From positions 419,995-483,994 of the forward strand of contig NW_027104280.1 of assembly GCF_902728285.1 (NCBI RefSeq): 64,000 nucleotides of DNA. Direction: 5' to 3'. This DNA comes from Clytia hemisphaerica. Lineage: Eukaryota. Both the position numbers and the translations under genes were made by a program. The notes under the pieces are model-generated. The model ran no database searches. It saw only the letters and a program-made list of their open reading frames with translations, and was not told where the DNA came from. This document shows positions 13,401 to 50,425 of this stretch, piece by piece (position 1 is the first letter of the stretch; each line of letters starts with the position of its first letter).

Positions 13401-16268
13401 GTTGAAGTCTATTTTACCTGTAGACTCACTCCTCCTAATGCTCCAGTAATATCCTTTAATAACTCTAATATCGCGACCAGTGAGTACCAGAAACATCTTG
13501 GTTTATTGCCTTTAGTGTCATACTTTGATACGAATGTAGATTATAATTTAAATAACATTTTAATGGTCATTCTGTATATATTTTTCCTGTAAACAATGTC
13601 TAATCTTGGTTTAATCTTAGATTCAAAACTTTCTTTTGATGGCCATCTAGATGAGAAGATACAAAAGGCCAATAAAGGAATTGGTCTTATTAACCGACTT
13701 CGCAAGCATGTGCCTAGGAGATCTCTACTAACCATTTATAATTTTTTTATTAGGCCTCATCTTGATTATGGTGATATCGTATATGACCGCCCAGGAAATG
13801 CTACCTTTGTGCAGAAGTTTGAATCTATTCAATATAATGCCTGCCTTGCTATAACAGGCTGTTTTCGTGGAACGTCTCAAGAAAAACTGTATTCAGAACT
13901 TGGTCTTGAAAGTCTTGCTGACAGGCGCTTTGCTAGAAGAATGACATTCTTCTATGGAATTATTAACAATTTAGCCCCTTCGTATTTACGCAACTACCTG
14001 TCAGTAAGACTTACAGCACCAGGTGGCCTTAGAACAAGAAATCCTATTTATCCTCTTAATATACGAACTGAGCGTTTCCGTAACACTTTTTTTCCGTACT
14101 GCATATCTCAGTGGAATGTTCTGGGAGGTAATATACGAGATCTACCTTCAATTAAAACTTTCAAAAAAGCAATCTATGAATTTTTGAGACCCAAGCAATC
14201 CCATGTTTTTGATGTTCCTGACATTCAAGGAGTAATCTTTCTTAATCGACTTCGGGTCGGTTTCAGCCATCTCAACGAGCATAAATTTAGACATGGCTTC
14301 CGCGACACTTTAGACCCTTTCTGTGGTTGCCGAACTAACTCTGTTGAAAACACTCAACACTTTCTTCTGCACTGCTCTATATATTCCCATGCAAGACAAT
14401 CTTTGTTCGACAAACTTCAGACCCTAGGCATTATTTTTCATCCGCCACTTAACCCTCCTTTTTTCTGTCGGCTTTTATTATATGGGGATGAAAGTTTGAC
14501 TTCAAATATAAATAAATCTAATCTTTGTTCTGTTGTATAATTTCTTATCGAAACTGGAAGGTTTAGCGGTGCTTTATTTTAGGCTTTTACCTAACAACTG
14601 TAGCTTCCTTCTCCAAGATTTTTTTTTCTTTTTTTTTTTCTATTATTTATTTAGTTATTTATTTATTTTTTTACATAGTCTAGTACCTCTGGCGATATAA
14701 CGTTAGTTCCTAGCGGGGGGAGGGACTATATTTTATGTTTAAGTAATGTTTTGTAATATATGTTCCTAGTGTACACGTGGCTTTGTTTCAATAAAGAAAA
14801 AAAAAATCAATTCAGTTTTAATAGCGAGTAGAATGACTTTCTTTTTTTCGCTCAGAATGGACAGAGACGTGAAAGAATTGAAAGAAAAGTTCCTTCGTGG
14901 ACGAAACCCTGATCTTGTAAGTTTTTGTTATTTCCACAATCTTCTATCAATGAGAAAAAGTGTGATGTTGTACCATATTGTTCTTGTTGAGGATTGATTT
15001 TGAACCATTTTGCTCTTTTTTTAGAACAAGATTAACGACATTCATGTGGTTTGTGGCTGCTTGAAAGATTTCTTACGAGGATTGAGTGAACCTCTGGTCA
15101 CATTCACCCTTCATGAATCGTTCATGGTTTCTGCAGGTGAGTCTGACCCTTCAATCTTCATATTGTGTCCTATGATCGTCTCAAATGGAATAGATGCCTC
15201 GGTTCGAATCTTCAGTCCAATTTAGTCTTTACACTTCAAATCTACTGTTGTTTTTTTATTGACTCTTTAAGTAGATCGTCGATGTCCTTACTACTGCAGT
15301 TAGCCTTACTTTCACACGTCGATAACTTTCTTTTAAAGCGCTGACTGATGAAGATGACAGTTTGAGTGGAATGTATCAATGTGTTAGTGAGCTCCCACAA
15401 GCCAACAGAGAAACGTTAGCAGCCATCGTCATCCATCTACAAAAAGTGGCCACTTCTACTGAAACACAAATGTCCGTCTCCAATCTCTCTAAAGTGTTTG
15501 GACCAACCCTTATTGGACATCGTTCGTCCAACCCAACCCACATGGAAATGTTAGATGACACAAAAGCGCAACCTGTTGTATGTTTTTTCGTGTATTTCCA
15601 TTCTTCGTTATTGTTTCTATAGGTGTGTCCTTTGTTAGAGAAGCACTCACGAGAAGAAGTTTTTACATGGTGAAACTTATTTTCAAAATATTGTATTACT
15701 TCGAACAAACGCCCCGGGAATAATTCAATTTTTTTAGTTTTTAGGAGGGGCGTTTATTCGAGGGGGAGCTTAAAGAAGGGTGCGTTTTTTTAGATATTTG
15801 ATTATAATTTGGTTTATTTTTCAGGTTGTCACCCGTCTGTTAGAGATGCCATCGGACTACTGGTCACAGTTGTTGAGCGGAGGACCACACGTTCGAACGC
15901 CTCCTTACAACCCTCACTATGCTTCAGCCACGCCCACTACTCCTGAATGCAAACCTGTTCCCACCTCCCGCTTGGGCGCTATCGATGACATGACTCCAAG
16001 TCGATCCGACCGAAAGTTCAACGCCATGAACCCAAGGTAACCCACTCGCAAACGATTCTTTTGTGATAAAGCCATGGCGTTTATTTAGAAATTTAGAACG
16101 CCACATGTATATAGCCAAACTGTTAGATATAAGAAAGGCGTTTGAAATCCAACTTCACTGTTTTGGATTCACCTTGATATTAAAACTCTATGACTTTATT
16201 CCTTTTTTTCTAGACACGCTTCGTCGAAAGATCCAAAGAGCCATCGATTTTTCAATTCGCCATCCTAA
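7398..16268 (+). CDS. RACGAP1: Rac GTPase-activating protein 1 ortholog (MgcRacGAP/CYK-4/Tumbleweed): N-terminal coiled coil, C1 (DAG/phorbol-type) zinc finger, RhoGAP domain. Multi-exon gene whose first coding exon(s) were not located
   Basis: Spliced translation gives '...QEDSRKKWQHVEEENHEMKKYMAKYK / ASKDTLDIQLNMARHQLDAEIKKRLKAEQSVDHM / ARQLQLIKELL... / HQFVPKVAVRMESCGTCNKKVRFGSHISKCKECKAMCHNECRDKVPLPCIP / ...[76 protein letters not shown]...DEDDSLSGMYQCVSELPQANRETLAAIVIHLQKVATSTETQMSVSNLSKVFGPTLIGH...VVTRLLEMPSDYWSQLL'. This is colinear with human RACGAP1 ([89 protein letters not shown]). Introns are flanked by GT...AG. Confidence 0.85.
7725..7765 (+). CDS. RACGAP1: RACGAP1 exon (ASKDTLDIQLNMA-)
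   Basis: tttcag|gca...gcaag|gtaata. Confidence 0.65.
7934..7994 (+). CDS. RACGAP1: RACGAP1 exon (RHQLDAEIKKRLKAEQSVDHM)
   Basis: atttag|ac...catg|gtaaat; matches human NQVDVEIKRRQRAEAD. Confidence 0.7.
8100..8520. repeat. Copy of a non-coding interspersed repeat family (same family as the tandem array at 60040-61640), located inside a RACGAP1 intron
   Basis: Shared blocks: 'cgttcgt..gtt.ccaactttTCTC.GGAT.GGCTCATTAGTTTTTTCT.ATTTTTGGCACAA.GATGCAAAATGGCAATGCCCAAAATGTGA.GGAGCCC.ATTTTCGAAAAAAA', 'ttcattcaaaaacattattaatagcaatgcccaccatcaag.atgtttcaattttcaataaaattg', 'caggtaggtccattcagcatg'. Confidence 0.7.
8622..8773 (+). CDS. RACGAP1: RACGAP1 exon (ARQLQLIKELLLDKDGSGDTKLVFDKLQQQINDTVGQRVDNEQQADLINQ-)
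   Basis: ttgttag|gct...caaag|gtgata; matches human ERQIQLIREML. Confidence 0.75.
8951..9020 (+). CDS. RACGAP1: RACGAP1 exon (SYTLDESSFDLPASEYDNTEDDIL)
   Basis: atttcag|tta...ttttg|gtatgc. Confidence 0.65.
9554..9607 (+). CDS. RACGAP1: RACGAP1 exon (DLTGGSVLGNGRRRSNKR)
   Basis: ttttcag|gac...aaagg|gtatgc. Confidence 0.6.
9738..9788 (+). CDS. RACGAP1: RACGAP1 exon (GLPTAPPLNEVDSTESE)
   Basis: attctag|ggt...gtgaa|gtaaga. Confidence 0.6.
9964..10005 (+). CDS. RACGAP1: RACGAP1 exon (LSTYQVKKTRVSEE)
   Basis: tttatag|ttg...gaagag|gtaaac. Confidence 0.55.
10162..10230 (+). CDS. RACGAP1: RACGAP1 exon (KPARKFKKKRTRYYVPEEKVYRQ)
   Basis: tttttag|aaa...gacag|gttact. Confidence 0.6.
10454..10613 (+). 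CDS. RACGAP1: RACGAP1 exon (VHKTIETHVTVTGGRSPAKSPKKAERLDKDFSRPPSQSGKRPPSRGHVRAQST)
   Basis: ttttatag|gtc...tacca|gtaagt; matches human [21 protein letters not shown]. Confidence 0.7.
10746..10791 (+). CDS. RACGAP1: RACGAP1 exon (TDMSDEYDKENCSTP-)
   Basis: ttttag|cgg...ccaag|gtatgt; the phase works only with the 10613 donor. Confidence 0.6.
11056..11190 (+). CDS. RACGAP1: RACGAP1 exon (low-complexity Q/P/H-rich linker RPFTLTRHQQQQPPLQPKPENHHSNNRHHHHQSFQHPSPSKPPIN-)
   Basis: ttttgcag|acc...caacaa|gtacga. Confidence 0.55.
11330..11386 (+). CDS. RACGAP1: RACGAP1 exon (KGLTKQMTVPNLYPNLDSM-)
   Basis: tttcag|ggg...atgtt|gtaagt. Confidence 0.55.
11551..11665 (+). CDS. RACGAP1: RACGAP1 exon, first half of the C1 zinc finger (LTPDPKKKFNTLNTPRSGKKLQAHQFVPKVAVRMESCGT)
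   Basis: ctctag|gac...; matches human HDFVSKTVIKPESCVPC. The 3' boundary is non-canonical (see finding). Confidence 0.65.
11959..12004 (+). CDS. RACGAP1: RACGAP1 exon, C1 finger continued (CNKKVRFGSHISKCK-)
   Basis: cttttag|tgcaac...tgcaaag|gtatat; matches human CGKRIKFGKLSLKCRDC. Confidence 0.7.
12132..12274 (+). CDS. RACGAP1: RACGAP1 exon, C1 finger end and linker (ECKAMCHNECRDKVPLPCIPSKDTPGRKREGAIESYISGSGLQVPKIV)
   Basis: ttctag|aat...attgtc|gtaagt; matches human HPECRDRCPLPCIP. Confidence 0.8.
12596..12660 (+). CDS. RACGAP1: RACGAP1 exon, RhoGAP start ([22 protein letters not shown])
   Basis: ttttcag|aca...accagg|gtaagt; matches human [20 protein letters not shown]. Confidence 0.8.
12700..14810 (+). 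mobile_element. 5'-truncated non-LTR retrotransposon (LINE) copy in a RACGAP1 intron: RT domain plus C-terminal region, AATAAA and A-tail at 14793-14808
   Basis: ORFs at 12933-13592 and 13596-14540 carry RT motifs (DISKAFDRVWHDGLLFKL, QGSILSPLFFLIYINDL, FADDTSLFS) and are separated by an in-frame stop; 'caataaagaaaaaaaaaatc' lies at the 3' end. Confidence 0.8.
12933..14540 (+). pseudogene. Reverse transcriptase ORF2 remnant, interrupted by a stop at 13593-13595
   Basis: The two collinear RT-like ORFs in the six-frame track are in the same reading direction and separated by a single stop. Confidence 0.75.
14856..14916 (+). CDS. RACGAP1: RACGAP1 exon, RhoGAP ([20 protein letters not shown])
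   Basis: cgctcag|aat...gatctt|gtaagt; matches human [21 protein letters not shown]. Confidence 0.8.
15025..15136 (+). CDS. RACGAP1: RACGAP1 exon, RhoGAP ([37 protein letters not shown])
   Basis: tttttag|aac...tgcag|gtgagt; matches human [34 protein letters not shown]. Confidence 0.85.
15339..15577 (+). CDS. RACGAP1: RACGAP1 exon, RhoGAP (ALTDEDDSLSGMYQCVSELPQANRETLAAIVIHLQKVATSTETQMSVSNLSKVFGPTLIGHRSSNPTHMEMLDDTKAQPV)
   Basis: tttaaag|cgc...cctgtt|gtatgt; matches human [60 protein letters not shown]. Confidence 0.85.
15825..16036 (+). CDS. RACGAP1: RACGAP1 exon (VVTRLLEMPSDYWSQLLSGGPHVRTPPYNPHYASATPTTPECKPVPTSRLGAIDDMTPSRSDRKFNAMNP-)
   Basis: ttttcag|gtt...cccaag|gtaacc; matches human [17 protein letters not shown]. 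Confidence 0.8.
16214..16268 (+). CDS. RACGAP1: RACGAP1 terminal exon (RHASSKDPKSHRFFNSPS*)
   Basis: tttctag|aca... with stop taa at 16266-16268; the human C-terminus is ...GNFFASPMLK. Confidence 0.65.
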
Positions 16269-22243: not shown

Positions 22244-25175
22244 CTAGGTATTTTTGTATTTCGTTCCAAATCGAAATAGATTGAAGTATAAAATTGAGTA
22301 ATTACTATAAGTCACTGTGGTTACTTCAGGAGTTTTTAAAAGACCAGACTTACAACGAATTACATTATGACGGTCAGTATCATTTAGACGCCTATATTCA
22401 AGACTTTGCAGAAGAGGAAGAGGTAGCTTGTGATTTAAAAGTTTAAACAGTAAAATGATATTTAAGTATTTGACAAAGTCAAAAAAGGAAAGAAGTTTAA
22501 AGTCCAAAAGTAAGGGAAACGAATGTGCACGAAAATCAGAGAAGGACATAATTCTAAGAGCTTGCTTCTGGAGAATAAGAGCTCGTTTAGCATGAGTAGT
22601 TTGACGTTGGCCCCAAATTTGGGCTGCATAAGAAAGATGACAATGGAAGAGAGAAAAGTACAATGATGTTAAGGTTTTTTTGTTGACATAATGTCGAAGT
22701 TTACTCAGAGCCCCATTGGCTCTTTTTAATTTGTTACATACAAAATCAACGTGATGTTTCCAGTTGAGATGCTCGTCAATATACACGCCAAGATATTTTA
22801 CAACTTTGCTTGGCCTAAGCCGATGACCATTGATTTTAATTTTTAAATCGTAGTTGATTTTCTTTCTGACTGGACGGAAGATCATAAGCTCAGTCTTGCT
22901 GGTGTTCAGAGATATTTTGTTTGCCTTCAGCCAATTCATCAAGAGTTTTAGATCAATATTGGCTTGCTTTGAAATTGGTTTTAGGGATTCGTTTGAAAAA
23001 AATAACATAGTGTCGTCAGCAAAAAGATTGACCAATGCATATCGAAGTGCAATGTGGAGATCATTCACATAAAGAAGAAAAAGTAAAGGGCCAAGGACAG
23101 AGCCTTGCGGGACACCATGTTCCATGGGTTTTGATCTTGAGTTTTTACCAGATACTGACACGAATTGTGATCTACCAGAAAGAAAAGAACGAAACCAGTC
23201 AAGAGCTTTGCCACGAATGCCATAAAAATCGAGTTTTGACAGTAGAATTGAGTGATCGACGGTATCAAAGGCTTTTTGCAAATCGATAAAGATAGAACAT
23301 CCATACTCACCATCATCAAGAGCTTTAGAAATTTTGTTTATGCAGTAAAGAAGAGCTGTCTCAGTTGAATGATTGGAACGAAAACCAAATTGTAAAGGAT
23401 ATATAGAGTTAGAATGATCAAGAAAGTTTATTAGCCGCTTGTGCATAAGTTTTTGGAAAATTTTGTCGATGTTTGAAAGAAGAGAGATGGGCCTGTAGTT
23501 TTCAGCATCAAATGGAGAGCCCTTATTTTTGAAGACGGGGATGACTTTCGCTTCTTTGAGTTGACTAGGAAAGATACCAGTAAAGAAAGAAAGATTTATG
23601 ACATCTGCAAAGATTGAAGAAAGACTTTTCAGATTTGAGGAGATGATTCGAAAAGGAATGCTGTTGGGACCTGAAGCTTTATGTTCACTGAGAGATGAAA
23701 TAACTTTGGAGATTTCATTTTTGGAAGTTGGAGAAACAAGAAAGTGATTGACGTTTCGATTGTCATTCTTCAGCCATTCTGAGAAATGATGACGCGTGTA
23801 AGGAATTTTAGAGCGTATCTTACCTGCAATAGTAGAGAAAAAGTCGTTAAAAGCTTCAGAAACTTCTTCAGGATCAGAAGATAAAGAATCATTGATATTC
23901 AAGGAAATGCCAGTGGAAGAAGAAGAAGAGGATATAATCTCTCTGACGCCTTGCCATAGTTTGCGAAGATTACCAGAATTTTGAAAAAAGTAACGAGAAT
24001 AATAAAGTTTTTTACTTGCACGAATAAGAGACACAATTCGATTTCGATAAAATTTATACCTACCACGGAGAAATTTTTTAAGATCAGGTGAAGAATCGGG
24101 TACTCTCAGATAGTCGTTGTTAAGGTTATCTCTGATTTCCATGGAGTAACGAATGCCTTTGGTGATCCAAGGTTTTAGTAAGAGATCAGCCTGACGTCTG
24201 GTCAATTGTTTAAGGGGAACATGTTTGTCATGCAAAGAATTAAATCGAGTTATAAAAGAGTTAAAAGACGAATCAACATTTCCCCTTTCAATACCAAGAA
24301 GACGTTTCCAATCCACGTTCTCGAATTCTTCTTTGAAACCTACTTCATCAAAGTTTGACCAATCTCGACGAGAAGGAAGTTCAGGTTTATAGTGAGAGCT
24401 ACAATCGGTGTTTAGAATCAAAAATTGTGGAAGATGATCGGATATCGAGACAGTGAGGTTTCCAGAAATTGAAGAGCAGTTTAGAGGAGAGATAAAAATA
24501 TTATCAATGAGAGTACTTGAAGTATCAGTGAGCCGCGTTGGAAGAGTAATAGATGGAAGAATTTGATAGGCACCAAGGACGTCAAGAAATTTGGAGTGAG
24601 AGATTTCAGAATCACAAGTCAAAAGATCACCCAAGTCACCCAACAGGACGAGATTTTTGTTTTCTTGACAAGACTTTCGCAACAAAGGAGTTAAGATTTT
24701 TTCGTTAAAAAGATCAATGTCGAAAAGAGGGTGTTTATAAATACATCCAACAATGAAATTTTTACGGTTTTTCAGGACAATTTCAGCAAAGGTGGATTCA
24801 AGGTTGCCAGAATTAGAATATACAAGCTTTGAAAGATCTTCACGAGGCTTGCTATTGAAAGATTTAGAAATAAAAAGGGCAGTTCCCCCAACTGTTGTGA
24901 CTGCCGGGGTATCGAATGACTTAAAACCAGGGATGGAGAGCTCAGTATTTTCGATCGTAGAATGAAGCCTTGTCTCAGTGATACCAAAAATGCTAAAAAT
25001 GATGGTTGAGACGAGAAAGTAACGTAGTAAGATTATCGTGGTGTTTTTCTAAAGAGCAAATGTTCAGATGGAAGCAAGAAAAATTTTGTTTTTTGAGAGA
25101 AAGAGAAGAAAATTCTTGAGTACTAAAATATTTGCAATCAAAATGATTAACATTGTTCATCGATTTGAGAATCAA
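22244..25175 (-). CDS. LINE ORF2 (endonuclease / reverse transcriptase), with one +/-1 frameshift at about 24988-24993
   Basis: An 813-aa ORF in the track, plus an in-frame upstream APE region read from the sequence. Confidence 0.8.
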
Positions 25176-27107: not shown

Positions 27108-28205
27108 AGCGTGGGCTTGGCTGCCATTTTGAATTTCGATTTTTTTTCTCCTGTACTTGGCAATTTAGAGGTAGTTCGTAATTCCCGATTTGGCTTACGC
27201 GTAACACTTGTGATACTTGTGATAGGATCGATCATCGGAACGGCTCGATGACGGATCGATATGTGATGGATGGATTACTTAACGATCCGGATAGGAGATC
27301 GATAGAGGATCGATACTCAAGATTTTTTCAAGCTTATGATTAGTTATCGATCTATCATCGATCTTTTATCGATCTTATCGACCCTATCGACTCATACTCG
27401 ATTTACGATCGATAACAAATCGATTAACGATCGATGACGAATCGATATACTTGATTGAAATACTAGCTCGATAATGGATCCAACAAAGGATCGATACTCA
27501 AGACTTTTTAATGGCTGAATCTTCCATCGATCTCCCATCCGGATCGTTAAGTAATCCATCGATCACATATCGATCCGCCATCGACCTAACAGATGGCCCA
27601 TTTTGCCTTTCCTATCTTTCACCTTACCTGTTTATTCTACTTTCTGAGACTTAGTTTCTCATTTCTGACTGAGTTTTCATACCTGTCAATCATTTTTCCA
27701 TCAATTTCGACCAATCTAATTTTCGCACCGAGTGGGATTCAAACCACCACCAAAGAAAGACCTTCAGATTCGGAAACCAGCGCTCTATCCATCGAGCCAT
27801 CGCCGCACAGCAAAATCACGCAATTCATAACACATTATACCGAACTGGCAAAAGACGGGGGTAATGTTATTATAATATGGGTAAAAGTACCCCTTTTTTA
27901 AACCTGACTGAAATTCGAGCCGTTACTAGCAACCCTGCGGGGCCCAAGGCGCCGAGTATGCACCCGGCACAGTGACAAGCCGTTACTAGCAACCCTGACC
28001 CTGACCCAATACCCCCTGAATCACGGAATGATGGATAGGAAAAATTATCGGGGAAAAAATTGCTCTGCGCGGTCTGTGCATATAGCGAAATTTCATCATG
28101 GGCTTGGCCGCCATTTTGAATTTCGATTTTTTTTCTCCTGTACTCGGCAATTTAGAGGTTGTTCGTAATACGCGATTTGGCTTACGCGTAACACTTGTGC
28201 CTGGT
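27108..28205. repeat. About 110-bp direct repeats (27108-27215 and 28095-28205) flanking a palindromic, ATCGAT-rich foldback structure (27237-27590) and duplicated 'gccgttactagcaaccctg' motifs (27913-27990)
   Basis: 'gggcttggc.gccattttgaatttcgattttttttctcctgtact.ggcaatttagagg..gttcgtaat.c.cgatttggcttacgcgtaacacttgtg' is present twice. 27257-27290 'ggatggattacttaacgatccggat' is the reverse complement of 27540-27565. Confidence 0.7.
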
Positions 28206-28903: not shown

Positions 28904-29319
28904 ATGGAAGACCTCCTGACGAAGGGGCGTCAAAGTGCAGAAGAAATTTTCCAAGATGTATGCAGTATTCCACTAAAGAAGCAAAGACTTGACTCCATTT
29001 TGAGAACCATACTGCACCCTCTTAAGGTGTTTGACGATGACACAGCTTCCTTTTGTTCTTGGTTAATTTCCTACGAGCAAAAATTTGAAGAATTCATAAA
29101 ACAGCTGAAAACTTTTGATACATCCACTGTCTGTGGACTTGTTTGGAATGCAAATTTCTTTGCTTACAGATGTAGGGACTGTGGGATTTCCCCTTGTATG
29201 TCACTTTGTGCAGATTGTTTTGCTGCAGGAAATCATGAAGGTCATGATTTCAACATGTTCAAAAGTCAAGCCGGAGGAGCTTGTGATTGCGGTGATAGAA
29301 ATGTTATGAAACCTTCAGG
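28904..29319 (+). CDS. UBR3: UBR3-like exon 1 (start codon, UBR box)
   Basis: atg at 28904; donor tcagg|gtattt. Confidence 0.85.
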
Positions 29320-32300
29320 GTATTTTTATTTGTTCTCTTTATTCATTATGCCTTTTCCTTTTCAAATTCTTTGCTCTAGAAAGAGGGAAGTTTTATGTCC
29401 ATACACATAGAACCATTTTGGGTAACTTTTATTGAGAAAATTCTAGTGCTGTCATGTCATAGCAACTTGTTGTTCTTATTATCTTCACTTCAGACGTCCA
29501 GATTAGCCAAATATTAAATTTACAAAACTGAAAAAGCTTAGGATTCAATATTATGCTTTGAAAACTTCAAAGGGCCGGCGATTTACACAAAAACTTCGGC
29601 GCTGCGCATAGGCTTCGCAATCCCTATTCATAAATTTAAAAATATAGTTATAAATATCCCAATATTGTAATTTTTAACTCTTACAGCATCTTCATTAATT
29701 CTTTATACCAAAAAAATTAAACAATTTATAATTAAAACACACCTGCAACTAAAAGTGAACGAAACACTCGTGAAAATTTTGAATTATACAGCTTTAATTT
29801 AACATCTTTTTTAACCATCTCAATAACTTAACTTTTTAGAAAGCCTGGTGTTATAATTGTCATCCAGTAATTTCAATAAACATAACCTCTTTGCATATGT
29901 CATATTCCTTGTGATGTTTTTGTAACAATTCAGTACATGAAATGTTTGCTCACAGACTTCCGTATTCATCTTACGCACATCCTTAAATTTAGGAAGATCG
30001 GGATGGTATTTACAGTCGTCACTACTGAGCACGCATTTCGACTGCGTGTGTTTCTCAGCATGAAAAACGTCCACAATAAACATTAATTCTTCAATTTCCT
30101 TGGCAAAAACATTCCCTTCCCTTGCTAATCTACAGACGTACGGGTGTAGATCACAGGATCTATCATAAACTATACCTTTCAAGTTTCCATTAAGATTTCC
30201 TTGAAATATATCAATTAACCCTGTAAACACCATTGATAGACTTTCAGCAGTATACATTTCAAAATGGGACAATCGAATGCCGCATGATCTAAAAACATAC
30301 AACATACCAGCAGTCCGTGTCTCGTACTTGTTGCAATTCTCTTCTTTCTTGCAACCTTCTCCACTTGTAATAACATTCTCCAATAGCTTTACTCTTTGTC
30401 TAGTCATAGGATAAAGGTCTAATCTTTCATTTTTGATTTCATTTTTCATCTCTCCTGACTCGTTAGAGTGGATGTGGCATAATTTGGATCCTTTTAAAGA
30501 TTGATTTCCTCTAACCGGATTATTTATACAACGAACAACTTTGTTAACTTCTCCTATCTCATGAGGCAACTTAGTTATCGGTTTAGCGCAACAATATCGA
30601 TACAATTTTTCGTTTCCGTCGATTACAACCATCTTATTCTTGCAACCTATAATTTAGAAAAGTCATTATTTTGATTAATTTTGAAAAACCCCACTGGGAA
30701 ACAATTTAACCGGGATGCTGAGACAGGGGTGTAATAGTCATTTTTTCAATTTAAGCCTACACATATAATGATAAAATGAATCAAGTTCAAAATGTATCCG
30801 AATTACCTGTCTCGTTACATTCGTGTGAAAACCATTTTTGATCGATTACTTTTTTCAAGGTTGGATACACATCTTCACATATCTTTTCAATATCGAAATG
30901 TTTATTGTGGTCCTTTCTGTGCCATAACATTGTGGGGCAAATGCTTATTAGTCGTTTTATGAGCCAATGATTTTCGATGACTTCGGCAATCAGCTTTCTT
31001 TGTAGAGTCATCAATTCCAAATTCAACATTGTACATTTCGGAAATCTTATCAAAACTTGTAGCACCAATACAAATCTGTAGAGAAATCCTCTCTAGATAT
31101 CGTGTCGTAAAAGCTATGGATGACGTGATCATAAAGTAGTCATCTCCATCTGTTAGATACGTTCGATATCCATCTTTATTTTCTGTCCAGTGTCTGTAAA
31201 ACTTCGTCTTACACGTCTTACACAAACCATGGTAATTCAATCCATCAATAATGCCATTTTCAGTGTAAATCCTTACTTGGGATGCTCTAGGGTTAATCCT
31301 GATCTTCTTCGAGCAACAAGTAGTGGTAATTGGGATAAATGCTGGCTGCTCCATGTATTCGCTGTTCCCTGTTTTATACCTAACCATACAGGTGCTGCAG
31401 TGTAGGATATGACTTTCGATTGGACGAAAATAAACTTCACCATTTGGTAGGTCAAGGTCTACTAATACCTGTAGATTACTGTCACTTAATGTGGTTACAT
31501 ACGATTGCAAAGTCTTCGTTATGTATTCGATTCGGTGTGGAGTGCGTAATGAAACATTACTAAGTAAATTCTGTAACACTTTCAATACATCAATCCGAAT
31601 AATCATCTTCGCGCCTCTTAACTTTTCTCCGTATCTGCTTCCAGAAGGTTTGTACTCAAACAAATTTTTCTTTTGTACATAATTTGTTTCATAAAAAACT
31701 GACGTTACAATAAATTTTTCAAGAAGACAATGCAATGGCTTTTTTTAGTTGTGACGTCGGATTTTGATTTTGGGAGAACATTGCATTGCCATCTTTAAAA
31801 ATTAGAAACTTAACGGTCATAAATTCATTTCACCTCAATCAACACTCGAGGAACAATCATGTCGAAACCTTTGAAAGAAATCTCAGACGATGTTTACCGG
31901 CGCGCACTGGAAAAATGTTGGGCGGTAAAGTTGGACACACAGAAAACCTTCCCTACACTAATCGATGAATGGATAACAGTGGAGAAGAAAAAACTTGGAG
32001 TTCCGTATTCTTACCTTGCATACCCACTTCTAACGAGTATATCATACTGTCTCGGTGTGAGCAGAGTAAAACTGGCTGAATCGTACCAAGAACCCGTCAT
32101 CCTTTACTCGTTGGTATCAGGCAGAAGTGGTACAAATAAATCAAGCTGTGTATCACTTTTCCGAAATATCATCAACAAGATTGAAACAAATGAGCGAGAT
32201 GATAAACAGCACATCTTTGACAGTGGCACTATCGAGGGTCTCATGACCACACTTCATGAGAACAACGGCTCCGTTTTATGCGCTGTAGACGAGTTTTCCA

Positions 32301-35300
32301 CATTCTTAGATGCAATGGATAAAAACTCAAATGGAAATGTCGAACGCTCAAGGTAACTTTTTACTTAGTTTTGTAATTTTAAGATCCCATATACCTCACC
32401 GTCAAATATAGGTAATACGCACTCCAATGGAGAACCTAAAATCTTAATTGTGTTCGCACGGGTTTTCGCATAATCTCAGTTAGTATTAGACCTGACATCC
32501 GTATGTTCAATTTTAACGTTTATCTTTTGAAAATAGCTCTTCATGTAATGGTATATGAACATAAGATACTTTTATCTTTAGATATCTATCTCTTTGGTCC
32601 GGTTCATCATGGTCAAAAAAGACAAAGCACGGCGGAAAGGTGGAAATTGAAGACCCACGATTCAGTTTTTATGGGTTTAACCAAAACTACTTTCTTATTA
32701 ACATGATCGTTAACAGCAATCATTTTGATGGATTCCTGCCAAGATTTTTGGTCGCTACTTCTGAAGAGGAGTATGTTCCAATAACGGAAAAAATTGCAGC
32801 TTCGAAAACAAAAGTTCCACTCTGTATCCAGAATTTGTTTGACAAAATTTTCAAACACTTTTACTATAAAGGTCATGTTTTTGAGCTAGACACTGAAGCA
32901 TTTACTTTGTTTGCATCATATGATCAAAAAGTTTTGGACTTCAGAAAGGCAGATGTGTTCGAAGACATGAAATCAATGATTATGTCCAAAAGTATCGGTA
33001 ATGTGCTGAGAGTAGCTGCTCTCCAGTGCGCACTACGCGTTGTTACCTCAAACCTCGATGCCGATGACTTATCAAATCTGGATTTCACAATTGGGATGGT
33101 CGACATGGAACGAGCCATCACGTTGGTAACGTATTCGGTTAACTGTTTAATTGCATTGATAGACAGCACGAAAAATACTTCACGAAATGGAAGGAAACGA
33201 CATAGCGAAATGCCTTTACCTGAAGTAATGGATGAGGAGTTTCTATTGGTCCACAAGGCGAAAATCAAAAAGATCTTCACGCAAAATTCAAAGATCGTAC
33301 CGGTTTCATCCATCACAAGAAATCACATGTGTCCTCAAATAGGTGGGAAAAATGGTTCAGAAGAAGCTAAACGTTTTCTAAAGGGGTTAGAGTTGAATGG
33401 TCTTGGTAAGCTGTCAGTGGAGAATGATAAATCAGTATTTATTGTAACCGATAAAGAAAACATTGAAAATCAGATTTAATATTTATGGTTTGAATAATTA
33501 AATTTTTACGTGTTTGGATGATTTTTAAATTTGGCAGTTAATGATGTTTTAAACATTATCTTGTATTCTGCCTTAATTTCAAATTTTGGGTTTTAAGGTT
33601 AGGTTGACCAGATATTTATGGAAAATTTCAGTTTTTTCTCCACACATCCATATTTGTATTTAGTCAAAATCAAATCATATAATTGTATTTATTCTTCAGA
33701 TGTTGAATTCTAATTATTATTTGTATATTTTCCAATAACTTATTAATCACATCCTTACTTTTTTCAATGAATTACTCTATCCACCATTTAAAAAAACTCA
33801 TAAAAACCCGTTTTGGGGTCACATCTATACATCATTTGATTTTAAGTTTTGATTTGACTTTAAAATTACAAGAACAAGTAGGTTTTATTGACTTAACCTT
33901 TACCTAACACATGTATTATTGACACCACCAGGCCATTTCAGACTTTATAGTATAATAGCTCCTATCACACGCGAAAGGCTTAAGTAGTGCAAACACTGAC
34001 CTTTATATACCCTGGACCAAGCTTCTCAATCCCAGCCAAGCAAAGTCTTTGATCGGAGTTTTTTGAAAATTGATACCCTAATGGCGGCACTACTCGATAG
34101 CGGTGTAAATGCATCGAGAGCGCTAGGTCTACTTTTCCTCGAATTTATTTTATGATGTAGCGGCGTTAGATGTTAATTTTTAACATTGCAATGGCTTTTC
34201 CTCGGGTACCAATTCCAAAAAAAACTCCAATCAAAGATGGCAGATATTTTTTTTTTTCGGTCAAAAAATCAAAGATGGCAGATATTGCTTGGTCCAGGGT
34301 TATATAAAGGTCAGTGAGTGCAACATTCTTTACCGCTACGCCGAAGCCGGGAAGGCCATTTCAGACTTATAAAAGCTCCCATCACACGCGAAAGGCTTGC
34401 GCAGCGCAACGTTCTTCGCCGCTACGCCGAAGTCGCGAAGGCCATTTCAGACTTATAAAAGCTCCCATCACACGCGAAAGGCTTGCGCAGCGCAACGGTT
34501 TTCGCCGCTACGCCGAAGTCGCGAAGGCCATTTCAGACTTATAAAAGCTCCCATCACACGCGAAAGGCTTGCGCAGCGCAACGTTCTTCGCCGCTACGCC
34601 GAAGTTGCGAAGGCCATTTCAGACTTATAAAAGCTCCCATCACACGCGAAAGGCTTGCGCAGCGCAACGTTCTTCGCCGCTACGCCGAAGTCGCGAAGGC
34701 CATTTCAGACTTATAATAGCTCCTATTACACGCGAAAGGCTTGCGCAGCGCAACGTTCTTCGCCGCTACGCCGAAGTCGCGAAGGCCATTTCAGACTTAT
34801 AAAGCTCCTATCACACGCGAAAGGCTTGCGCAGCGCAACGTTCTTCGCCGCTACGCCGAAGTCGCGAAGGCCATTTCAGACTTATAAAAGCTCCCATCAC
34901 ACGCGAAAGGCTTGCGCAGCGCAACGGTTTTCGCCGCTACGCCGAAGTCGCGAAGGACATTCCAGACTTATAAAAGCTCCTATCACACGCGAAAGGCTTG
35001 CGCAGCGCAACGTTCTTCGCCGCTACGCCGAAGTCGCGAAGGCCATTTCAGACTTATAAAAGCTCCTATCACACGCGAAAGGCTTGCGCACGTCAAATAC
35101 GCAGCGCCGAAGTAAGTGTGCAAATCGTCGCCCCACTCGAAAACTTACTGAGACCTGGTATATACCTGGAAATTCTCTATATTCTCTGAGAAATTATTAT
35201 AATTATTTTCCTGAGTTGGGCCAGGACAGACAAGCACTTTTCCAAGATCTCAATGCTTAAAAATGTGGTCACATGCCGTAAATATAAACCCTCACTCAGT

Positions 35301-38300
35301 ATAGTCCTAACTGTTATGGGGGATGTTATTTTGCAAAAATGGCATAAATTCTTAGCCCATTTGTCAAAAGTTGCCTTTGGGTATAAAAAGAAGAAAAAAT
35401 CATGTTAAAATCCTGTGGCACCCTTTTCAAAAGGTTGCCACAGGCAGGGTGCCACCCTCGCTCCACCAGCAAAATCGAAATAAATAAAATAATAATAATA
35501 AATAATAATAATAGTAATAATTTGAAAGGTATTTTCATGCTGATTAAGAAAGTCAATATAATGAGGTTGAATAACACTGTCACAAAAAGTAATTTCTCAC
35601 AGTTGGCAAAATTTTGAGGATTTTGCTAAAAACGCAATTTTTGACGTTTTTCTTAAGTTTAATACTTCTAGTTAGAGTGTTTTTCACCCTTACAATATTG
35701 AGCGGCGGTGGCACCCTACCCGTGGCAACCTTGAAAAAAGTGCCACAGGGTTTTTACATGAATTTTTCTTCTTTTTATACCCAAAGGCAACTTTTGACAA
35801 ATGGGCTTAAAAAATTAGTCCTAACATCCCCCCTATAACTGTTCAAATAAAATTAACGGGAAACGCATATTTGATGCTTGTTGAAAAGATACTCATGAGT
35901 GAAATATTATCATAAAACTTTGGAAAATGAAGAATGAAAATGAAGAAAGAATCAACTCTGCGAAAACTGTGCTATATATAATTATCATTTTCACACAAGT
36001 AATTCTGTGACCTTAGAACATATTTAATATGAAAACATCTTTAAAAAAAAGTTTATTTAATCAAAAGATGTACAGTAGCCCAAAGTTTATCCCTGATTTA
36101 CTTTAAAAACCATAAAAAAACAAGAAAAAGTTCTTTTTCAAGTCAACCTGGGAAAAGTTTTAAGCTGACTGAATAAATATTTTTTAAATATTAGTTTGAT
36201 TTTATGAAGTCTAGGATTAAAGAGTTTCTGAAGTATATTTTTAGTGACCACAGAACCCCTTATCTAAATTGAATTCTATCTATCAAAAGTTTTTTGTCTC
36301 CACTGCAGATTATATTGAGAAGACTTTAACTCCAAACTCATTAAACATTAGCTCTTAAAGTTCTTAAAGCAAAAGTGTAAAAAAACATGTGAAAAAGGGT
36401 ATTAAATTAGGCATTATCATTGAAAGTGTTATTATCACTTGATGACATGGCTGTCCTCTTTTGAAAATGCTGTCAATTTGACCAAAGACCGCAGCCCTAA
36501 CCATGCTATTCATTTTGACCATGAGTATAAGAAAATCATAGCATGAATCTCCAGGCTAATAGGAACATGCTATCGCCATCAGTCAAATAAGAAACCAATT
36601 TCTTTCGGTCACTAGCTTCTTTCATTTGACAAATCAACCTTGAGGAACAAATTTTAGTCAAACTGAACCATCAAATCAGTCTATACATGATTTTACTAAG
36701 TTTTAATTGTGGTCAGTAGAATACCAACCAGACAGGTGGGAGATGGTTGAATAAAGATTTTACAAATTTTCTCCGTCTAATGATTCATATCATTCTATCA
36801 CTGGTCAAAACCCCAAGGTTCCATTCCAAAGTTAACACTTATCCTCTATCTCCTCCAAGTTGTTTCCCCTGTATAGAATAGGGAGATACTTGAATGGTTA
36901 AACTATGTTTTTCCCATCACCCATCGGTGGTCCAGGAAATTGATTCTTCTAGTTCTATCAAGAAAAGGTGACTTAATAAGTGCAATATTTTTTTTTACAA
37001 AGTTTTCAAATCGTTAGAAAAAAAACTGGAAAATATTTTTAAAAAATATGTAAAGTGTATATACATTTTCTGATTTGCAACACTCTCTCCAACATAATAT
37101 GCTTTTAAGGAATTTTCCTTCTTTTTGAATGGTCTCTACCTGCTAAGCTTATCTATTTTTGTCTCACATTATTCATTAAATCTAATTTGGACCAATTACT
37201 TGAACTTGGATTGGTTGTAATGTAATCGGTTTCTTGGAAGCTTCCAGAAAATGGGGTTCAAGAGGGGCTTGAAAATTTGGGTTTTCTGAGGTTGGCTGTG
37301 GCAAAAGGGAGGGTACTTTTTTCTTGGGGTTTTAAGAGCCCTGAAGACTCTGATTGATGCAATCAAAAAAATAACTCTGTGTCTTTTGTGTAATCTAATT
37401 TCAAAGTAAAGTCTTTATTTTCTTTTAACACAGGTTCTGCCATCATCATGGGAAAGTTGAAGGCTCAAAGCAGAAAGCAATTCCCGAAAAGTTGATATGG
37501 GTGGCACAGATTCTCATCCCACGACTAATTATTTGTTTGTACGAAAAAACTAAAAACAAGGATGAAGCAATGGAGGAAGGTATTGTGTTTTGTTTTTATC
37601 ATTTTCTAAATACAAAATAGAATCAATCCATAGAAAATATATAATAAAAACAACGTTATTAAACAAAGTTATGAATAAAATCACTTTGTTAATTGCCAAA
37701 TTTTGTTAAAGGGAACAAGATATTTAAAGGCACGACCATGGTTTCCCAAGATAAATTTACTTGAATGTTTTCAATTTATCAGCTTTTTCCCTGTTCTTAT
37801 TGTACCTCTACCATCTCTTCTTTGTAAATCATGCTGAAAGGTGAAAGGAACTTTGTATTATTCTTTTAGACTCATCTTTGGATGTGGAGCCTATCATTGA
37901 CTTCCTCAATAAAATCAGTGAAGTAGAAGCTCTGCGAGAAATCTTTTGTGAGAAGATCCTTTCATCGGTGGATGCAACTTTTGATAATTATCTTATCAGC
38001 AGTAATTCTTCGGAGGTGACAAGTCTGGTCTCATGTGAAGCATCAAATGGAAGAAAAATCATTCGCTCAATTTCAACAGAAACCAATACTATTGAAATGA
38101 CAGTTTCGAATACATGTGATGGTCTTGGTGAACCGTACAAACCCAATGAGGTGGAATCTCCCACATTGTCTAGAAGCAATATCAAAGAAAATAATAAACA
38201 AACTTTTCTGCAATATCTGATGGAAGTTCTTGTGAAAACTGAATTTCCAACTCAACTTGCCACACTTTTACTTCAAATGCTACCAAATCAAAAATACAAG

Positions 38301-48900: not shown

Positions 48901-50425
48901 TGGGTAAATACCTGGGGGTCTACAATTGGGCCTATGAATAATTTGAAGCCACTGAAGTTGAGCCCAGTGCGTTGCGCACGTTCGACTATTAGTAATAAAC
49001 CTTTTCGACCGTAATCGCCAATTGCCGCGCGGGCATTTTTCGCACCCATAGACTGAGACAATAGAAAGAGGTGTCAAAAAAGGATTGGATCGAGTTTAGG
49101 GGGATAATTGAATAATTTCTTTCAAAATGTCACCACTTCGAGTAGGCGTCTAAAACAGATAATACAAAAGCGAATTTATATGTTTGAACTTTTGAGGACA
49201 GTGGAGTGACTGGAGCGATTTGGAAAACCTACAATTCTGACCCGCAAAATTGAGGACGGTAAAAGTTATGTATTTGTTACCGCCGTGCTTAGCTGATCAG
49301 GACCTAGATCAATCAGACACTCACGGTCTTCGTTGCAGAAAAACACAAATATAAAAACTCGCTAATTATACCCAGGAAAGGGGTTACTTTCTCGCCTCCG
49401 CAAATCCCAAGTAGGCTCGCAAAAGCACAAAATTCAAAATAACTCTCGATAGTAGAAAGCTTTTAGAAAATCTAGAGACTTTACTCTCAGGACCTGAATG
49501 AGAGCGGTTTTTACAACACTGTAATTATTGTCTTTGTTTTATCAAAAGATGATGAATATGTCATAAACGTAGACGCTCCCTCATAAATTTTGCAGGGTAT
49601 CTCGCTACGCCTATGCAGGTGCATAATAAACGTGCCCACACGCTTATTAATTTTCGAAAGTTTTTCAACCCCCACGGACCTTATTAGGAATTCCCACGTT
49701 TATTAAAATTCAGAAATTTCTTATCAAGTATTTTTCAAAATGGAGAGTAAGTATTTTCTGCAGGCTTTCAATGACGTTGAGCTAGACAGCTGACAAATTA
49801 AACAAGTTAAGCAATTTTAACAAATATAATTATACTTATAGGTGTGATAAAGTATGACTTATTGTTGTGGTACCCTCAAAATATGTGCATCTTCTTGCTT
49901 CCAATAATTAGGGGTATTTTCGACAAATTATCAAATTTCCAACCCCCACGCTTATTAAGACCCCCACGTTTATTAAAATTCTGAAAAAATTCCAACCCCC
50001 ACGTTTATTTGTACTCCCACGTTTATTATACCTGAGAGTACTCGCCGTCAAAAAAAAAAGAAATTTCACATAGGTTCTATTTACCGAACCTTAGTGGTAC
50101 ACCCCAGCACTCCCAAGAAGTAAACTGTGCCCATTTTTAATTGATTTTCTTTTTTCTATAATATTTCAATTTCATATCATTTTGTTTTCATTTTCCGAAA
50201 AAGGTGGATTCTATTTTATACAATGATATAACCCATTTCTGATATTATCATTTTTATTGCTTTTGGGCGAAATTTTGAAAGCCTAAATACGATTCTCTGC
50301 ACGTACTAGCTTTTGATTTTTGAATGTTCAAGTGTTCAATGACAATTGTTTAAAATCACGAGTTTGTGTTATTTACTGTAGAATATTCGATTAAATCTTT
50401 GGGCATACGTCATTATCATTCTGCA

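Follow-up and report, generated by a model that had tools for sequence, protein, structure and literature searches.

KDZ (Kyakuja-Dileera-Zisupton) DNA transposons, among them Zisupton of fish, the fungal Dileera and Kyakuja, and KDZ1-3 and KDZx1 of Cryptococcus, are multi-kilobase elements that encode a transposase with an N-terminal CxC-type cluster and a KDZ domain together with an additional open reading frame. Zisupton, Dileera and the experimentally mobile Cryptococcus KDZ1 have terminal inverted repeats and make 8-bp target-site duplications, whereas Kyakuja makes a 7-bp duplication and has no inverted repeats (PMC12730594, PMC11343200). We describe an element from Clytia hemisphaerica that shares the features common to Zisupton, Dileera and KDZ1 and is a helicase-bearing variant of the known KDZ transposon class. 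It differs from the described members in its cnidarian host, its CxC5-type cluster, its long subterminal tandem arrays and its accessory gene, which encodes a DUF3987 protein where theirs specify a TET/JBP dioxygenase, a SWIM domain or a product without recognisable domains. A Pfam profile search of the transposon's proteins found no SWIM domain, and a search of published papers turned up none in which KDZ and DUF3987 are connected.

[quoted passage not shown] The Clytia protein resembles such helicases of phages and bacterial elements (AgaPH; phage primase-helicase modules) in its PF13148 match, MCM-like AAA+ core, winged helix and Walker A/B motifs. Unlike them, it lacks a primase, whether fused or encoded next to it, its gene contains an intron and resides in a eukaryotic transposon with a DDE transposase as partner, and its Walker A motif reads GRSGTNKS. 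A second precedent is AcademH, a lineage of eukaryotic cut-and-paste-type elements in animals (corals included) and fungi that is likewise defined by a second, helicase gene (PMC7165386). The Academ transposase is unrelated to KDZ, however, its helicase is RecQ-like SF2 rather than MCM-like SF6 AAA+, and its duplications measure 9-10 bp, against 8 bp here.

A 5.6-kb element within a UBR3 intron

The window, as we call the whole stretch analysed, comprises 64,000 nt of Clytia hemisphaerica DNA. A first-pass annotation had placed a divergent gene pair inside the first intron of UBR3; both genes lie where it located them, all the peptide motifs that it quoted are present in the translations, and the flanking exons at 28904-29319 and 37434-37579 confirm the host gene. 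A splice donor GT is read directly after the UBR-box exon (29320-29321), and joining the downstream exon to it brings back the conserved junction of '...SG' with 'FCHHH'. The transposon occupies 29568-35138 (5,571 bp) of this 8.1-kb first coding intron, and the features of the locus are as follows.

28904-29319, plus strand: first coding exon of UBR3, with the UBR box (Pfam zf-UBR, E = 1e-18; homologues named UBR3)
29560-29567, no strand: left copy of the 8-bp target-site duplication, GAAAACTT (same 8-mer at 35139-35146)
29568-29609, plus strand: left terminal inverted repeat, about 42 nt, with one GCGCAGCGC on the minus strand (inverted-repeat search)
29820-30646, minus strand: KDZ transposase exon 2 including the stop, RNase-H-like catalytic core (Pfam KDZ; junction reproduces XP_066918854.1)
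30647-30806, minus strand: KDZ transposase intron, 160 nt, GT..AG (splicing it out gives the sequence of the RefSeq paralogue)
30807-31606, minus strand: KDZ transposase exon 1, N-terminal region and CxC5 zinc cluster (Pfam CxC5, E = 5e-13)
31607-31858, no strand: divergent intergenic region, 252 bp from ATG to ATG, presumed bidirectional promoter
31859-32352, plus strand: DUF3987 exon 1, N-terminal helical domain, Walker A GRSGTNKS and Walker B VDEF (Pfam DUF3987)
32353-32581, plus strand: DUF3987 intron, 229 nt, GT..AG (spliced product matches RefSeq)
32582-33479, plus strand: DUF3987 exon 2, RYLSLWSG, sensor-1-like Q, 'PRF' arginine-finger-like motif, lid and C-terminal winged helix
33930-33992, plus strand: degenerate extra 86-bp subterminal unit, truncated by a nested insertion (blastn self-comparison, 80-87% identity to array units)
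34320-35090, plus strand: subterminal tandem array, 9 x 86 bp, 95% identity (Tandem Repeats Finder)
35097-35138, minus strand: right terminal inverted repeat (inverted-repeat search and alignment)
35139-35146, no strand: right copy of the target-site duplication, GAAAACTT, matching the left copy
37434-37579, plus strand: next coding exon of UBR3, 'FCHHHGK...ILPRL' (tblastn hit and motif shared with UBR3 fragments P0190 and P0173; splice sites read)

The terminal inverted repeats form a 38-nt arm at 82% complementarity in the repeat search and match at 33 of 42 positions in the in-register alignment, with the outermost 4-5 bases of the ends pairing poorly; these termini and the 8-bp duplication are defined from a single Clytia copy. 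The two copies of GAAAACTT are in register with the inverted-repeat alignment, where about 8.5e-4 chance matches would be expected over 13 symmetric offsets. An 8-bp duplication combined with inverted repeats makes it unlikely that the element is a Kyakuja (PMC12730594).

The subterminal sequences are built on a recurrent motif. An exact GCGCAGCGC is present in eight of the nine units of the 86-bp array; the window contains nine occurrences where 0.01 would be expected, and all fall within the element's ends. In the window, L001, L006 and L011, the four families whose contigs extend to the ends, the genes are bordered by inverted subterminal tandem arrays, and the same motif is common to three of these four, recurring in the arrays of L001 and of L006-L008.

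A KDZ transposase and its DUF3987 partner

The two genes diverge from a spacer that measures 252 bp between start codons, not the 123 bp (31736-31858) reported at first pass. It contains a 25-nt inverted repeat (31713-31737 and 31779-31803), spacers in other head-to-head relatives span about 207-255 bp, and we presume that it acts as a bidirectional promoter.

The minus-strand gene had been likened to KDZ/Zisupton transposases, and its two Pfam domains score above the curated cut-offs: CxC5 (PF18718) clearly, at 47-50 bits against 26.9, and KDZ (PF18758) barely, at 29.8-32.4 bits against 26.6. The same precomputed KDZ annotation is borne by 64 homologues. Translation begins at the ATG at 31606 ('MIIRID') and not at the TTG that bounds the open reading frame, so the product has 541 residues rather than the roughly 560 first estimated. 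Its N-terminal cysteine cluster is conserved (C97, C98, H126, C129 and C132), the exon 2 motifs DGNEK, RTAGM, YDRSCDL, VDVFHAEKH, CKYHP and NTEVCEQ are invariant across 33 homologues, and the protein has an RNase-H-like DDE fold with conserved acidic residues, its closest solved structural neighbour being an IS256/Mutator-family enzyme.

The internal frameshift suspected in this gene is present in the assembly as one surplus base within 30994-30998 (AAGAAAG) of exon 1. Deleting any single base of that interval yields a 541-residue reading frame matching the intact paralogue XP_066918854.1 (P0112) at 540 of 541 positions. The shift falls in a short A-rich run where an assembly error is possible; taken as it reads, the 1-nt insertion is predicted to leave the window copy unable to make full-length transposase. 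The element had accordingly been called a decaying inserted copy. Inserted and damaged it is, but its age was overstated, given a single residue difference in 541 once the extra base is set aside, and the window copy appears young but damaged.

The two genes occur together on at least four Clytia contigs. The paralogues share protein clusters at 90% identity, some being intact and others truncated, and the intact 541-residue transposase XP_066918854.1 adjoins XP_066918856.1, a DUF3987 protein of 470 residues. With an intact transposase/DUF3987 pair elsewhere in the genome, the window copy could be mobilised at most in trans. We conclude that the locus is very probably one copy of a young, multi-copy KDZ DNA transposon.

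The spliced plus-strand product (463 residues) is 100% identical to RefSeq XP_066929300.1 and stops 7-10 residues before the ends of its paralogues. It had been compared to SF3 helicases of the D5/P4 type; no SF3, D5_N or DUF5906 profile or fold was recovered, and the protein instead matches DUF3987 (PF13148) at 111.5 bits, where the cut-off is 27, as well as the PHROG families 'DNA helicase' and 'DNA primase'. The Walker A/B-like pair noticed at first pass is present, with 50 residues rather than about 55 between K94 and D144/E145. K94 and D144/E145, together with the arginine-finger-like R219, are invariant in 21 homologous sequences. The Walker A motif carries N where canonical P-loops have G before the lysine, and MCM proteins likewise depart from the P-loop consensus at the residue preceding this lysine. 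The predicted structure of the protein is that of an AAA+ ATPase of the MCM-like (SF6) type, followed at the C-terminus by a winged helix. The family's usual association with an AEP or DnaG primase is not seen here: Pfam detects no primase domain in the protein and the elements contain no third gene, whereas distant relatives do have Prim-Pol and PriCT_1 domains.

Linkage of the two genes across distant relatives

Of 12 informative loci (marine metagenome contigs, with the window counted), 11 have a KDZ gene next to a DUF3987 gene. Locus L014 holds a 3' fragment of a KDZ gene and no DUF3987 gene within 10 kb. Protein identity among the paired loci is only 42-68% and three different gene orders occur, with the pairwise identities of the two proteins co-varying (Pearson 0.84, Spearman 0.65). 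No third large open reading frame is present in L001, L003, L015 or L016. On these sequence comparisons, the helicase gene is a core, co-evolving part of this KDZ lineage and not cargo.

The first-pass proposal of a self-contained mobile module thus holds, with terminal inverted repeats, an 8-bp duplication, at least four Clytia contigs and recurrence of the pair in distant relatives. The more specific origins that it offered, a Polinton-like or virus-like insertion or a domesticated pair, are not supported, given the presence of only two genes, the lack of IMG/VR relatives, and multiple copies with terminal repeats. Were the pair a domesticated locus of the host, or part of a virus or Polinton-like element that had integrated, this would accord with the spliceosomal introns and RefSeq annotation of both genes, with transcription of at least one family member (the transcript-derived fragment TCONS_00006120), and with a DUF3987 family whose other known members come from phages and from mobile elements of bacteria. 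Yet the paralogues are multi-copy and near-identical, truncated and frameshifted ones included; the ends carry inverted repeats and a target-site duplication; the location is an intron of an unrelated host gene; and the 5.6-kb element contains two genes only, with none for a capsid, a protein-primed polymerase, a packaging ATPase or a retroviral-type integrase. IMG/VR holds relatives of neither protein, and bacterial and archaeal genomes returned a single distant match, the DUF3987 protein being only about 22-25% identical to its nearest prokaryotic members. We regard such an origin as highly improbable.

Possible roles of the helicase in transposition

We propose that the transposase would bind the repeated GC-rich sites in the ends, excise the element and insert it through 8-bp staggered cuts. 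The helicase may use its winged helix to load on the subterminal, iteron-like arrays and may then unwind element DNA. Such unwinding could part the strands at the ends for the transposase or, alternatively, drive the copying of an excised element or a transposition intermediate by host polymerases. A KDZ transposon with a DUF3987 partner is very likely the best explanation overall. The particular assignment of an unwinding or replication function, drawn by analogy with related proteins, is more tentative, and we put it at somewhat under an even chance.

The DUF3987 protein might instead be an AAA+ regulator or target selector comparable to MuB, TnsC, IstB or TniB and not a helicase, leaving the identity of the element the same. 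Such a protein would oligomerise on DNA, capture targets, activate the transposase and confer target immunity. To our knowledge, wherever a bacterial DDE transposase that depends on an ATPase partner has been studied well, that partner is an AAA+ protein with this function. The predicted AAA+ fold, the presence of TnsB/TnsABCD and IstA among the structural neighbours of the transposase, the obligate linkage and co-evolution of the two genes, and the lack of a primase or polymerase encoded by the element are all consistent with this model. MuA/MuB of Mu, TnsB/TnsC of Tn7 and IstA/IstB of IS21 are bacterial systems whose MuB, TnsC and IstB proteins sit on other AAA+ branches; any likeness would be functional only. 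We consider a purely regulatory function unlikely.

Returning to a helicase role, the element could transpose replicatively, by copy-out/paste-in or circle excision, with the MCM-like helicase loading at the repeat array as an origin and host polymerases doing the copying. The top structural match of the transposase is ISCth4, whose family uses copy-out/paste-in. SCCmec Cch and SaPI Rep are among the structural neighbours of the DUF3987 model, and a replicative role has been proposed for the former and shown for the latter; these proteins have bacterial hosts and accompany serine or tyrosine recombinases, and the likeness would again be one of function only. The nine iteron-like 86-bp repeats, the winged helix at the C-terminus of the helicase and the near-identity of the Clytia copies also fit replicative transposition, as does the replicative-helicase role of DUF3987 relatives in phages and in mobile elements of bacteria (PMC4889955, PMC11724360). 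Lacking primase and polymerase genes, the element would depend on host enzymes for any replicative role. We consider this model, too, unlikely.

In its strongest form, which we offer as an improbable reading, this KDZ lineage would be the first eukaryotic DDE transposon to bring its own replicative-type (MCM-like, phage-derived) helicase and to transpose through a replicated intermediate. If so, it would represent a eukaryotic counterpart of the helicase-assisted mobility of SCCmec and SaPI elements, one resting on the transfer of a replication gene from a bacterium or phage to an animal.

A KDZ transposon copy within UBR3

The window is DNA of the hydrozoan Clytia hemisphaerica. The UBR-box exon of UBR3 and the coding exon that restores its conserved sequence place the element within an 8.1-kb UBR3 intron, as the first-pass annotation had proposed for its two-gene cassette. 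The element lies 248 bp beyond the splice donor of UBR3 and carries its helicase gene on the UBR3 strand. For UBR3, it is an ordinary young intronic insertion.

Features of the element and its host intron (window coordinates)
28904-29319, + strand: UBR3 UBR-box exon (Pfam zf-UBR; homologues named UBR3), followed by a GT donor
29568-35138: the element, left end CAAAGGG..., right end ...CCCCACTC (termini from one copy)
30646-29820, - strand: transposase exon 2 (gene model)
30806-30647, - strand: transposase intron, 160 nt, GT..AG
31606-30807, - strand: transposase exon 1, ATG at 31606, 'MIIRID' start as in homologues
31859-32352 + 32582-33479, + strand: DUF3987 (helicase) gene, 463 aa, with a 229-nt GT..AG intron
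37434-37579, + strand: next UBR3 coding exon, restoring the conserved '...SG/FCHHH...ILPRL'

Both genes are enclosed by a 38-nt inverted repeat (29572-29609 / 35097-35134; 82% complementary), and in-register extension by 4 bases on each side reaches an identical 8-mer, GAAAACTT, at 29560-29567 and 35139-35146, a match with a chance expectation of ~8.5e-4 (13 symmetric offsets). Inverted repeat and flanking 8-mer therefore delimit an element of 5,571 bp. Duplications of the same 8-bp size are made by Zisupton, Dileera, and the experimentally mobile Cryptococcus KDZ1, whereas Kyakuja makes 7-bp duplications and lacks the inverted repeats present here (PMC12730594, PMC11343200). Comparison of the 64-kb window with itself revealed no second copy of the element.

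Inside the right end lies a tandem array of 9 x 86 bp (34320-35090; 95% identity), with an additional degenerate unit at 33930-33992. The GC-only 9-mer GCGCAGCGC has 9 matches in the 64-kb window where 0.01 are expected, each confined to the element ends (29599-29607 and 34399-35008) and oppositely oriented at the two ends. GCGCAGCGC / CGCTACGC motifs also occur in the subterminal arrays of four metagenomic loci (L001, L006-L008) whose proteins are <50% identical to those of Clytia, and GCGCAGCGC is a candidate conserved protein-binding site. ORFs of 77 aa at 34314-35189 were rejected as genes, being reading-frame artefacts of the 86-bp array. One 86-bp unit is split by a 335-bp insertion (33988-34322) with 36-nt inverted ends of ~92% complementarity, which looks like a MITE (miniature inverted-repeat transposon) and appears to be nested in the KDZ element.

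The same UBR3 region holds two palindromic MITE-like structures, one just outside the right duplication (35349-35812; 82-nt arms, 91% complementarity, 300 nt between) and one at 27245-27584 (66-nt arms, 92% complementarity). Upstream of UBR3, reverse-transcriptase ORFs at 22244-24685 (- strand; 813 aa, RVT_1 E = 9e-39) and 12933-13592 (+ strand; 219-aa fragment) mark retrotransposon copies, and downstream of the second UBR3 exon an unbroken 793-aa ORF (50366-52747, + strand) encodes a class-C GPCR (7tm_3, ANF_receptor). Neither Rfam families nor tRNAs were found at 27-38 kb of the window. A promoter/terminator scan was empty, its models being bacterial and not relevant to a eukaryote host.

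Transposase and helicase genes

The ORFs and peptide motifs quoted in the first-pass annotation are all present in the window. Its description of the minus-strand product as transposase-like is supported by Pfam CxC5 (PF18718) and KDZ transposase (PF18758), both scoring above curated thresholds, and the internal frameshift it reported is, in this assembly, one extra base within 30994-30998 (AAGAAAG). Deleting this base restores a 541-aa product that matches an intact Clytia paralogue encoded on a different contig (XP_066918854.1) at 540/541 residues; the RefSeq model at the window locus comprises only the 316-aa portion downstream of the frameshift. Residues D276 (in DGNEK), D428 (in YDRSCDL), D459, and E499, together with a His/Cys cluster (H462, H466, C471, C478, H481), are conserved across 33 homologues and all intact in the window copy. 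The spacer separating the two genes, first put at 123 bp, measures 252 bp from ATG to ATG (31607-31858), and the aligned intergenic spacers of three head-to-head elements contain no conserved promoter block.

After splicing, the plus-strand product matches RefSeq XP_066929300.1 at 100% identity and scores above the curated threshold for Pfam DUF3987 (PF13148). In 21 homologues there is no variation at GRSGTNK[ST], the Walker B DE, Q199, or 'PRF'. The window's product is 7-10 residues shorter at the C-terminus than its 470-aa and 473-aa paralogues, ending '...ENQI' and a stop where these go on '...NQIVSDLMTKLDL'. Frame 0 gives 'SDL' in the window where the paralogues read 'VSDLMTKLDL'; because 'SDL' at that spot comes from another frame, a small indel near 33470-33480 is suggested to lie behind the short C-terminus.

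The DUF3987 family belongs to the SF6 helicases, is distantly related to MCM, carries a C-terminal wHTH, and provides phages with a replicative helicase (PMC4889955). The MCM relationship is visible only by structure comparison: the DUF3987 profile matched no PDB sequence even at E <= 10, and an NCBIfam search gave no match. Among 1.84 billion representative proteins, a profile search recovered 6,429 relatives at E <= 0.001, of which only 79, the transposon clade and fragments, reached E <= 1e-30. More distant matches include Prim-Pol-PriCT-DUF3987 fusions, and 5'-3' helicase activity that depends on the Walker motifs is described for a bacterial PriCT-DUF3987 protein (PMC11724360). The nearest phage families carry the PHROGs names 'DNA helicase' and 'DNA primase'. 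Family evidence, literature, PHROGs, and profile search thus uphold the initial reading of a helicase or ATPase and leave its assignment to SF3/D5 unsupported.

Copies in Clytia and relatives elsewhere

The DUF3987 cluster at 90% identity comprises four RefSeq Clytia proteins on four contigs and one transcript-derived fragment, and the transposase cluster comprises proteins on contigs of the same four sizes (1.34 Mb, 82.7 kb, 157 kb, and 657 kb), including the intact 541-aa copy and truncated ones. On the 82.7-kb contig, the accession numbers of the intact transposase (541 aa; XP_066918854.1) and of a helicase of 470 aa (XP_066918856.1) are two apart. The Clytia family is young, an autonomous member probably survives in it, and the copy in the window was disabled recently.

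Nearly all homologues of both proteins at 36-64% identity were found in assemblies of metagenomes, marine and other, or of read-archive data. Among the 12 loci with enough flanking sequence, window included, transposase and helicase genes are adjacent in 11.

Gene order at the window and metagenomic loci
Head-to-head: window, L001, L002 (degenerate), L003, L010, L011, L012, L016
Helicase then transposase: L006, L007
Transposase then helicase: L015

The sole exception, L014, is a solitary 3' transposase fragment on a 425-kb contig and offers no second pair of termini. Gene order is not the same in the two closest elements, L001 and L006 (68% identity); the gene linkage has therefore outlived rearrangement. 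Pairwise identities of the two proteins co-vary across six elements (Pearson 0.84, Spearman 0.65; pairs not independent), and no third sizeable gene is present in L001, L003, L015, or L016. Inverted subterminal tandem arrays occur in every element whose contig extends to its ends. The helicase gene has introns in L010, L011, and L012, with a common break at ~residue 91, and is an intronless single ORF in L001, L003, L015, and L016; the Clytia genes have one intron each, at positions unlike those in the metagenomic relatives. The obligate linkage of the two genes is established, and one whole lineage of KDZ elements keeps the MCM-like AAA+ helicase. By inference, this helicase-bearing lineage, found in Clytia, also inhabits other marine eukaryotes sampled by ocean metagenomes.

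Scanned against JGI metagenomes, the DUF3987 alignment recovered two short contigs only. A scan of bacterial and archaeal genomes gave one match, at 23% identity. Viral-contig scans with both proteins found no relatives, and a 2016 survey described the DUF3987 family as 'curiously, not in eukaryotic viruses' (PMC4889955). It is very unlikely that the pair represents domesticated genes or a virus fragment.

A proposed role for the helicase

Building on the established anatomy, folds, conserved catalytic motifs, and multi-copy state of the element, we propose that the transposase would recognise repeated sites in the element ends and perform DDE chemistry with 8-bp staggered target cuts, the helicase acting as an element-specific factor. 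Its characterised relatives act in replication as helicases, the protein has kept its winged helix, and the element ends contain iteron-like arrays; for these reasons we tentatively favour a helicase that loads on the subterminal arrays and unwinds element DNA. Such unwinding could open the ends or allow replication of an intermediate; the second possibility, taken by itself, is rather unlikely. The main rival, in which the helicase selects targets as MuB, TnsC, or IstB do, seems improbable to a similar degree, and the DUF3987 fold belongs to a different AAA+ branch.

To our knowledge, very few eukaryotic cut-and-paste transposon superfamilies need a second enzyme. Among the known cases are the Myb protein of Harbinger and the RecQ-like helicase of AcademH. 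Of DDE transposons that carry a helicase of their own, AcademH comes closest as a precedent (PMC7165386), although its transposase is unrelated to KDZ and its helicase is SF2 RecQ-like, in contrast to the MCM-like DUF3987 protein described here. Full-text searching found no publication on KDZ and DUF3987 together, although such families may already be deposited in Repbase, and all 13 publications it returned on DUF3987 concerned bacteria or phages. The known, little-studied KDZ class gains a branch that bears a helicase, of a family whose earlier discussion was confined to phages and bacterial mobile elements, and the many 'uncharacterized' DUF3987 proteins of animal gene sets gain a concrete annotation. 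Two proteins, defined ends, and a candidate for a conserved binding motif make up a compact system suited to reconstruction and testing in a laboratory model animal. Should the helicase prove necessary, this system would provide a direct test of AAA+-assisted or replicative transposition by a eukaryotic DDE transposon.
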